From the NCBI RefSeq assembly GCF_003334765.1, contig NZ_QOWT01000121.1: a stretch of DNA of 486 nucleotides; one strand, 5' to 3'. This document shows positions 1 through 486 of the stretch, in pieces. The notes beneath the pieces are model-generated. The model made no database searches. It was not told the DNA's origin and was given only the letters and a program-made list of their open reading frames with translations. Each line of letters starts with the position of its first letter. The first letter of the stretch is position 1. A program made the translations under genes and the position numbers. Source of the stretch: Escherichia coli. Lineage in GTDB: Bacteria; Pseudomonadota; Gammaproteobacteria; Enterobacterales; Enterobacteriaceae.

Positions 1-486
1 GAAGCTGCGCAGCGTTTCCCGGTGCAGGCGGTCGCGGGTGTACTCCACCAGCGGTGTGTCGCCGAGTTTCATGCCTGCCAGGTAACCGCTGCCGTAGGTC
101 AGCCATTCCACGGCGGGCAGGCTGTCCGGTATACAGCGGTTCGCCAGCCCCTGCGCGTTGTACGCATGTCTGGTCTCATGCTGCCAGAGCAGTGCTTCCG
201 TCTGCGGGTGATGCACCGTCTGACGCTCACCGGTCAGCCGGCCTTTCTCATCATACCTGTAATGCACCGCCACCCGGTGCCCTTCGCTGATATGGCTGAT
301 GTCTGTCAGCCAGCCACGTTCGTCATACTGCCACCGCTCTGCGGTTTCACCCTTCACGGTGCGGTGCGTGAGGCGGTCTGCTTCGTCATAGTGCCAGTGG
401 GTGACCAGACCCTCATCCTCGCTGCGGATAAGTTTGCCGGTCAGGTCGTGGTGATAACGCTGTGTGCGGCCGTCAAAGCCGGTTTC
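1..486 (-). CDS. Rhs-family YD-repeat protein, internal core fragment (partial at both ends; polymorphic toxin scaffold)
   Basis: Seen in sequence: reverse-complement frame with codons at +484-486 down to +1-3 has no stop in 162 codons, while the other two minus frames hit stops within the first 4 and 15 codons (tga). Translation: ETGFDGRTQRYHHDLTGKLIRSEDEGLVTHWHYDEADRLTHRTVKGETAERWQYDERGWLTDISHISEGHRVAVHYRYDEKGRLTGERQTVHHPQTEALLWQHETRHAYNAQGLANRCIPDSLPAVEWLTYGSGYLAGMKLGDTPLVEYTRDRLHRETLRSF. It contains repeated Y-D-x-x-G-R/W-L motifs (WQYDERGWL, YRYDEKGRL, HWHYDEADRL, RYHHDLTGKL) at the spacing expected of Rhs/YD repeats, and codon choice is enterobacterial (ctg, ggc, cgc, acc). Established knowledge: the peptide closely resembles the conserved core of E. 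coli-type Rhs proteins as I recall them. I cannot tell which paralog or species from memory, so no gene symbol is given. Confidence 0.9.
187..270 (-). repeat. YD-repeat unit (peptide-level), near-canonical YRYDEKGRLTGE
   Basis: Residues 73-100, AVHYRYDEKGRLTGERQTVHHPQTEALL. This is the best match in the window to the R-Y-x-Y-D-x-x-G-R-L consensus. The YD dipeptide is encoded at +250-255 (atcata on +), 72 nt from the neighbouring YD. Boundaries are approximate. Confidence 0.7.
271..336 (-). repeat. YD-repeat unit (peptide-level), WQYDERGWL
   Basis: Residues 51-72, RWQYDERGWLTDISHISEGHRV. The YD dipeptide is encoded at +322-327 (gtcata on +), 63 nt from the YD of the neighbouring unit. Boundaries are approximate. 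Confidence 0.65.
337..408 (-). repeat. YD-repeat unit (peptide-level), HWHYDEADRL
   Basis: Residues 27-50, LVTHWHYDEADRLTHRTVKGETAE. The YD dipeptide is encoded at +385-390 (gtcata on + = tatgac on -). Boundaries are approximate. Confidence 0.6.
409..477 (-). repeat. YD-repeat unit (peptide-level), variant RYHHD...LTGKL
   Basis: Residues 4-26 of the minus-strand translation, FDGRTQRYHHDLTGKLIRSEDEG. Fits the Rhs repeat consensus G-x(3)-R-Y-x-Y-D-x(2)-G-R-L with the second Tyr replaced by His. Boundaries are approximate. Confidence 0.6.

Follow-up and report, generated by a model that had tools for sequence, protein, structure and literature searches.

Introduction

The window considered here, meaning the whole 486-nt stretch of Escherichia coli DNA that was analyzed, contains neither the start codon nor the stop codon of a gene, and it can be read from end to end on both of its strands. 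In the six-frame translation, frame 0 of the minus strand runs through all 162 codons without a stop and begins ETGFDGRTQRYHHDLTGKLIRSEDEGLVTHWHYDEADRLTHRTVKGETAERWQYDERGWLTDISHISEGHRVAVHYRYDEKGRLTGERQ, and frame 0 of the plus strand is of equal length and likewise uninterrupted across the 486 nt. The locus raises the question of which strand is translated, which gene the segment was taken from, and what that segment would contribute to the protein it encodes. An initial annotation had read it as an internal piece of an Rhs polymorphic-toxin core on the minus strand. The identity of the window, its reading frame, its coding strand, its family membership and the domain layout of its host gene were each determined by direct comparison. 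The window is almost certainly an internal fragment of a clade I E. coli rhs gene of the rhsA/rhsB type, carried on the minus strand, and would form part of the wall of a cocoon that encloses the protein's own toxin.

Identity and Reading Frame of the Window

All 486 of the 486 nt of the window are matched by megablast, at 100% identity, to both rhsA and rhsB of E. coli K-12, where they correspond to nt 1999–2484 and to aa 667–828 of either gene, in frame with the annotated CDS; the peptide of the window is accordingly located at residues 667–828 in both RhsA and RhsB. The match occupies coordinates 7001–7486 in the rhsA locus of K-12 MG1655 (L001) and the same coordinates in the rhsB locus of strain ER1709 (L002), with the CDS starting at 9484 on the opposite strand in both records. 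Full-length identity to the mid-core of these genes, at codons 667–828, bears out the reading of the window as an internal minus-strand piece of an Rhs core, and exact identity to the annotated K-12 rhsA and rhsB agrees with the further statement that the system is a known one; the window is an already well-described piece of an Rhs toxin-shell gene and holds nothing new. The features that it carries are as follows.

1–486, minus strand: coding DNA from the interior of an Rhs core gene, spanning codons 667–828 (100% nucleotide identity; RHS_core profile)
430–456, minus strand: YD motif YHHDLTGKL, aa 11–19 (motif scan)
370–396, minus strand: YD motif WHYDEADRL, aa 31–39 (motif scan)
307–333, minus strand: YD motif WQYDERGWL, aa 52–60 (motif scan)
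235–261, minus strand: YD motif YRYDEKGRL, aa 76–84 (motif scan)
349–447, minus strand: RHS/YD repeat pair, aa 14–46 (Pfam PF05593 RHS_repeat, E 5.3e-05; TIGR01643 at aa 13–50)
223–327, minus strand: RHS/YD repeat pair, aa 54–88 (Pfam PF05593 RHS_repeat, E 4.4e-04)
1–216, minus strand: degenerate-repeat part of the shell, aa 91–162 (RHS_core profile and alignment to Tse5)
1–486, plus strand: antisense open frame, a 190-aa GTG ORF in K-12 (L001 7022–7594); a by-product and not a gene

RhsA (WP_000015300.1, b3593) and RhsB (b3482) of E. coli K-12, which are classified as clade I Rhs elements (Jackson et al. 2009), share with the window its DNA, protein, frame, strand relation and GC-rich composition. 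Since no position of the window distinguishes the two copies, the window is assignable neither to rhsA or rhsB individually nor to a strain. The paralogues RhsC and RhsD belong to the same family, have an open sense frame at the same core position, and retain 150/162 and 131/162 identical residues, respectively; at the nucleotide level, the window is only 93.6% identical to rhsC and 79.8% identical to rhsD, and it therefore does not derive from these copies.

Coding Strand

The openness of a frame is weak evidence for coding in a sequence of this composition. When the window was shuffled 5,000 times at the mononucleotide level, at least one fully open frame appeared in 6.7% of the shuffles and two open frames in 0.18%, percentages that serve as a rough guide, as such shuffles do not keep codon structure; open frames are only moderately unusual at 62% GC. 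It is the family match and the substitution pattern, and not the openness of either frame, that carry weight in deciding between the strands.

A real gene on the plus strand, with the YD motifs of the minus strand being incidental, would account for the absence of a stop from plus frame 0 within the window and for the 190-aa GTG ORF that this frame forms in K-12. However, the openness of the plus frame is explained by the GC-rich sense frame itself, in which the codons TTA, CTA and TCA, the sole codons that give codon-aligned antisense stops, occur zero times. No NCBIfam match was obtained for plus frame 0, whereas a curated equivalog is matched by the minus-strand translation with an E value of 2.1e-101. 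The substitution pattern points in the same direction. Compared with rhsC, 19 of the 31 differences fall at minus-strand third positions, and they alter 12 amino acids in the minus frame versus 22 in the plus frame, into which they also introduce a stop; compared with rhsD, 69 of the 101 differences fall at minus-strand third positions, with 31 amino acid changes in the minus frame versus 77 in the plus frame, where no stop arises. The plus frame thus accumulates about twice the amino acid changes of the minus frame in both paralogues. Along the whole of rhsA, moreover, the aligned plus-strand frame is broken 21 times, its longest ORF being that of 190 aa. A plus-strand gene is consequently improbable in the extreme: the minus strand codes, and the plus-strand ORF is a by-product of a GC-rich sense gene. 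The minus frame had initially been singled out as the only long open frame with biological signal, a description that fits these results, as the plus frame, equally long, lacks a family match and fails the coding test.

YD Repeats and Family Membership

Four clear YD motifs were detected by motif scan in the minus-strand translation, spaced 20–24 aa apart, and two RHS/YD repeat pairs were recognized over the same region by the Pfam RHS_repeat model. The NCBIfam model YD_repeat_2x (TIGR01643) matches aa 13–50 with 19.9 bits, against a cutoff of 15.8. The remaining residues, aa 91–162, lack the canonical YD motif and are missed by the repeat models of Pfam and NCBIfam; they carry degenerate repeats (HAYNAQGLA, WLTYGSGYL and VEYTRDRLHRE), lie within the RHS_core match, and align to the shell of Tse5 up to its residue 731, with the stretches WLTYG.G.L and RD.LHRE being conserved between this part of the window and the Tse5 shell.

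The entire translation, aa 1–162, corresponds to positions 675–836 of the 1261 positions of the NCBIfam RHS_core equivalog (NF041261), with an E value of 2.1e-101 and 340.6 bits, or approximately 2.1 bits per profile position; the whole-protein cutoff of this model, 2000 bits, is out of reach for a 162-aa fragment. Full-length K-12 RhsA, for comparison, scores 2647.1 bits over positions 1–1261 and lies above that cutoff. The family assignment proposed initially is upheld in this way by the RHS_core, YD-repeat and RHS_repeat models alike.

Among proteins of known structure, the window aligns by sequence, over its full length, to the middle portion of the Rhs shell, at residues 577–731 of Tse5 (8cp6_B, E 9.6e-21) and residues 874–1032 of Tse15 (E 2.7e-16). 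Rhs proteins from S. bongori, P. protegens and Photorhabdus are further matches of known structure, and E. coli clade I is not represented among them. A YD-repeat shell is common to Rhs proteins and to several other families, namely, the TcB/TcC components of Tc toxins, teneurin-like proteins and WapA-type wall-associated proteins, and teneurin-like chains do appear among the PDB matches of the window. These teneurin matches are very weak (E 0.14–0.17), whereas the strong PDB matches are all to bacterial Rhs effectors; the best profile is the RHS_core equivalog and not a Tc or teneurin model, and the window is exactly identical to rhsA and rhsB. The probability that it encodes a YD-repeat protein of one of these other families is accordingly negligible, and the Rhs assignment is retained in what follows.

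Organization of the Host Gene

The domain layout of the host gene can be read from K-12 RhsA. Pfam places DUF6531 at residues 46–123 of this protein, followed by a run of RHS repeats, the PF03527 'RHS protein' domain at approximately residues 1143–1179, and the Ntox34 toxin domain (PF15606) at approximately residues 1298–1372 (E 1.6e-42), and the Rhs_assc_core model (TIGR03696) covers residues 1170–1247 with 83.2 bits. The motif PxxxxDPxGL, the predicted aspartyl autoprotease motif of the K-12 Rhs proteins, begins at residue 1238 in RhsA (1238–1247) and in RhsC, and at residue 1249 in RhsD; directly after it, the sequences of the paralogues are unrelated. Jackson et al. divided such proteins into a clade-specific N-terminus, a core, a hyperconserved motif ending in DPxG, and a variable tip (PMC2935791), and the window falls in the core domain of this four-domain scheme. 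Its composition is that of the core as well: with 62.3% GC, the window resembles the core as a whole (61.8%), compared with 52–53% in the flanks and 40.6% in the tip, and the contrast between a GC-rich core and an AT-rich tip is a known Rhs signature (PMC2935791).

The variable C-terminal tips and the small genes downstream of them form toxin-immunity pairs, designated Rhs-CT/RhsI (PMC3150448), and the tip of K-12 RhsA and the ORF downstream of it are listed there as one example, toxin and immunity activity having been reported for K-12 RhsA by Vlazny and Hill 1995 (cited in PMC3150448). In K-12, yibA lies directly downstream of rhsA. Farther along, the fragments at L001 2777–4458 are interleaved with yibG, which encodes a sel1 repeat protein, and are followed by a frameshifted Imm57 immunity gene; an orphan toxin-immunity array of the kind seen downstream of K-12 rhsA is typical of rhs loci. 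The region is not the same in every strain. For instance, in strain ECCHD184 an IS5-like ISKpn26 transposase lies directly downstream of rhsA (L005 6299–7279), taking the place of the yibA/yibG/orphan-tip region of K-12, and yibI is truncated.

Dissociated core fragments are commonly present at rhs loci (PMC2935791, PMC3150448), and two of them adjoin K-12 rhsA, at L001 3502–4458 and 2777–2995, annotated as pseudogenes of the RHS repeat-associated core domain that are missing the N-terminus. The window could, in principle, have come from a silent 'orphan' remnant of this kind, composed of core plus tip, instead of from an expressed full-length gene. The position of the window within the core speaks against such an origin, since the two fragments beside rhsA are reduced to the final few hundred bases of the core, whereas approximately 1,240 nt separate the window from the DPxGL-coding sequence downstream of it; the window is, moreover, without a match in the fragments downstream of rhsA, and L001 is matched by it once only, within intact rhsA. 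A source in a dissociated fragment is therefore very unlikely, and an internal segment of a full-length rhs gene remains the preferred reading.

As a separate observation, some genomes carry frameshifted rhs copies, and the intactness of the source copy is not visible from the window. Both rhsB of ER1709 (L002 5250–9484) and the copy in FORC 064 (L006 7255–11482) are annotated as frameshifted pseudogenes. Alignment of ER1709 rhsB with rhsA over the first 3.7 kb requires one gap of a single base, and an ungapped comparison of the two genes gives dense mismatches from nt 3683 onward, just before the DPxGL-coding region.

Shell Structure and Proposed Role

The structures available for Rhs proteins provide a framework for the probable role of the window. 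In the solved proteins, the repeats spiral into a closed beta-cocoon, which is sealed by a plug at the N-terminus and an aspartyl autoprotease at the C-terminus of the protein, and the cleaved toxin stays inside the cocoon, largely unfolded, until delivery (PMC8765631). A homologous YD-repeat shell is shared by the solved T6SS Rhs effectors Tse5 of P. aeruginosa (8cp6), Tse15 of A. baumannii (8uxt), RhsA of P. protegens (7q97), Tre23 of Photorhabdus (7pq5) and the Rhs protein of S. bongori (8qja), and the host gene of the window presents its parts in the same order as these effectors, that is, shell, DPxGL autoprotease and variable toxin. From these homologues and the literature, we infer for the host protein a cocoon fold, encapsulation of the toxin, autoproteolysis and delivery between cells.

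The host protein would be of approximately 1,400 residues (K-12 RhsA has 1,377 aa), of which the window represents residues 667–828 and would encode about seven YD/Rhs hairpin repeats of the beta-cocoon wall, or approximately 13% of the shell polypeptide. By homology with the solved Rhs proteins, the shell would enclose the protein's own C-terminal toxin, which in K-12 RhsA would be the Ntox34 domain located after PxxxxDPxGL. The toxin would be kept enclosed until its delivery into a competitor cell, and the downstream gene would protect the producer by conferring immunity. Within such a scheme, the role of the window is likely to be purely structural; it holds no catalytic residue, cleavage site or toxin.

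Delivery Route

Rhs effectors are as a rule delivered in a T6SS-linked manner. The initial annotation had placed the window in a locus of contact-dependent or T6SS-linked toxin delivery. For this element, such delivery can be inferred from other Rhs proteins; the K-12 loci are without an adjacent vgrG and retain only a remnant of PAAR. Neither a vgrG nor a T6SS gene was found beside rhsA, rhsB, rhsC or rhsD of K-12 or beside rhsA of two other strains, six loci in all. No PAAR domain was recognized at the N-terminus of RhsA, where the Pfam PAAR_motif model reaches an E value of 0.23 over model positions 52–69 only, and the T6SS_PAAR_dom model (NF033420) yields 15.6 bits against a cutoff of 124 over positions 68–94 of 94 only.

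The K-12 Rhs proteins begin MSGKPAARQGD..., which includes a literal PAAR tetrapeptide (RhsA residues 1–40, L001 9365–9484), and their N-termini cover just the last 18–27 columns of the PAAR models, far below threshold. Judging from this alignment, the N-terminus of RhsA resembles what is left of a truncated PAAR domain, joined without a spacer to DUF6531. The solved Rhs effectors possess PAAR or clade domains and are carried by VgrG; the K-12 Rhs proteins, in contrast, combine the PAAR remnant with a DUF6531 N-terminal region, have no vgrG neighbor, and occur in a strain without a T6SS. In a comparison of the four sequenced safe laboratory strains of E. coli, K-12 among them, a T6SS was reported in W only (PMC3032704), and Jackson et al. 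stated that the linkage between rhs and vgr 'is not true in E. coli' (PMC2935791). T6SS delivery finds no support in the K-12 copies with exactly the sequence of the window, to which this statement is restricted.

Even K-12, which is without a T6SS, keeps several near-identical copies of clade I rhs genes. The clade I proteins of E. coli might be exported, or act, by a route other than the T6SS, or the genes might persist mainly as recombination substrates by virtue of their identical cores; either form of this proposal is rather doubtful at present, and the window is consistent with it while giving no evidence for it. For the family as a whole, the question is how the clade I Rhs toxins of E. 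coli are delivered without a linked VgrG or a PAAR domain, which lies beyond the reach of a 486-nt piece of shell.

Copies and Distribution in E. coli

Of the 5,426 complete E. coli genomes searched by megablast, 3,882 contain matches to the window, at a median of 3 and at most 7 places per genome, and 12,732 of the 12,735 match places in E. coli are chromosomal. The accessory character ascribed to the locus at the outset is in keeping with these figures, the window being matched in 72% of complete genomes at a variable copy number.

Within K-12, rhsA and rhsB are 99.2% identical over 3.7 kb and perfectly identical over nt 1894–3107 (L001/L002 6378–7591), a 1,214-nt block that encloses the window; apart from their C-terminal tips, all differences between the two genes are scattered sites beyond this block. 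Upstream of their start codons, the sequences are unrelated, with 30% ungapped identity. Dispersed repeats such as this block gave Rhs its name ('rearrangement hot spot'); the recA-dependent rearrangements to which that name refers have a classic substrate in these 1,214 identical nt.

Similar DNA is also present in 12 plasmid records and 3 phage records. The plasmid records are either megabase-sized (up to 4.8 Mb) or contigs of 2–15 kb, and all of them are typed as non-mobilizable; the phage records are 1.9–3.3 kb in length and carry no annotation. Megabase 'plasmids' with an rhs core segment are probably pieces of chromosome, and two short Klebsiella 'plasmids' (5,191 and 2,340 bp), which are 95.7–98.8% identical to the window, are probably mislabelled or contaminant fragments. 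A plasmid or phage origin was rejected, as no record suggests true mobility, and these records are read as mislabelled or fragmentary chromosomal sequence.

Implications

Short reads or windows from this part of the rhs core are not uniquely placeable, given the 1,214 nt over which rhsA and rhsB do not differ. The practical value of the window lies in annotation, where it marks an accessory gene that is repeated, GC-rich and prone to recombination.
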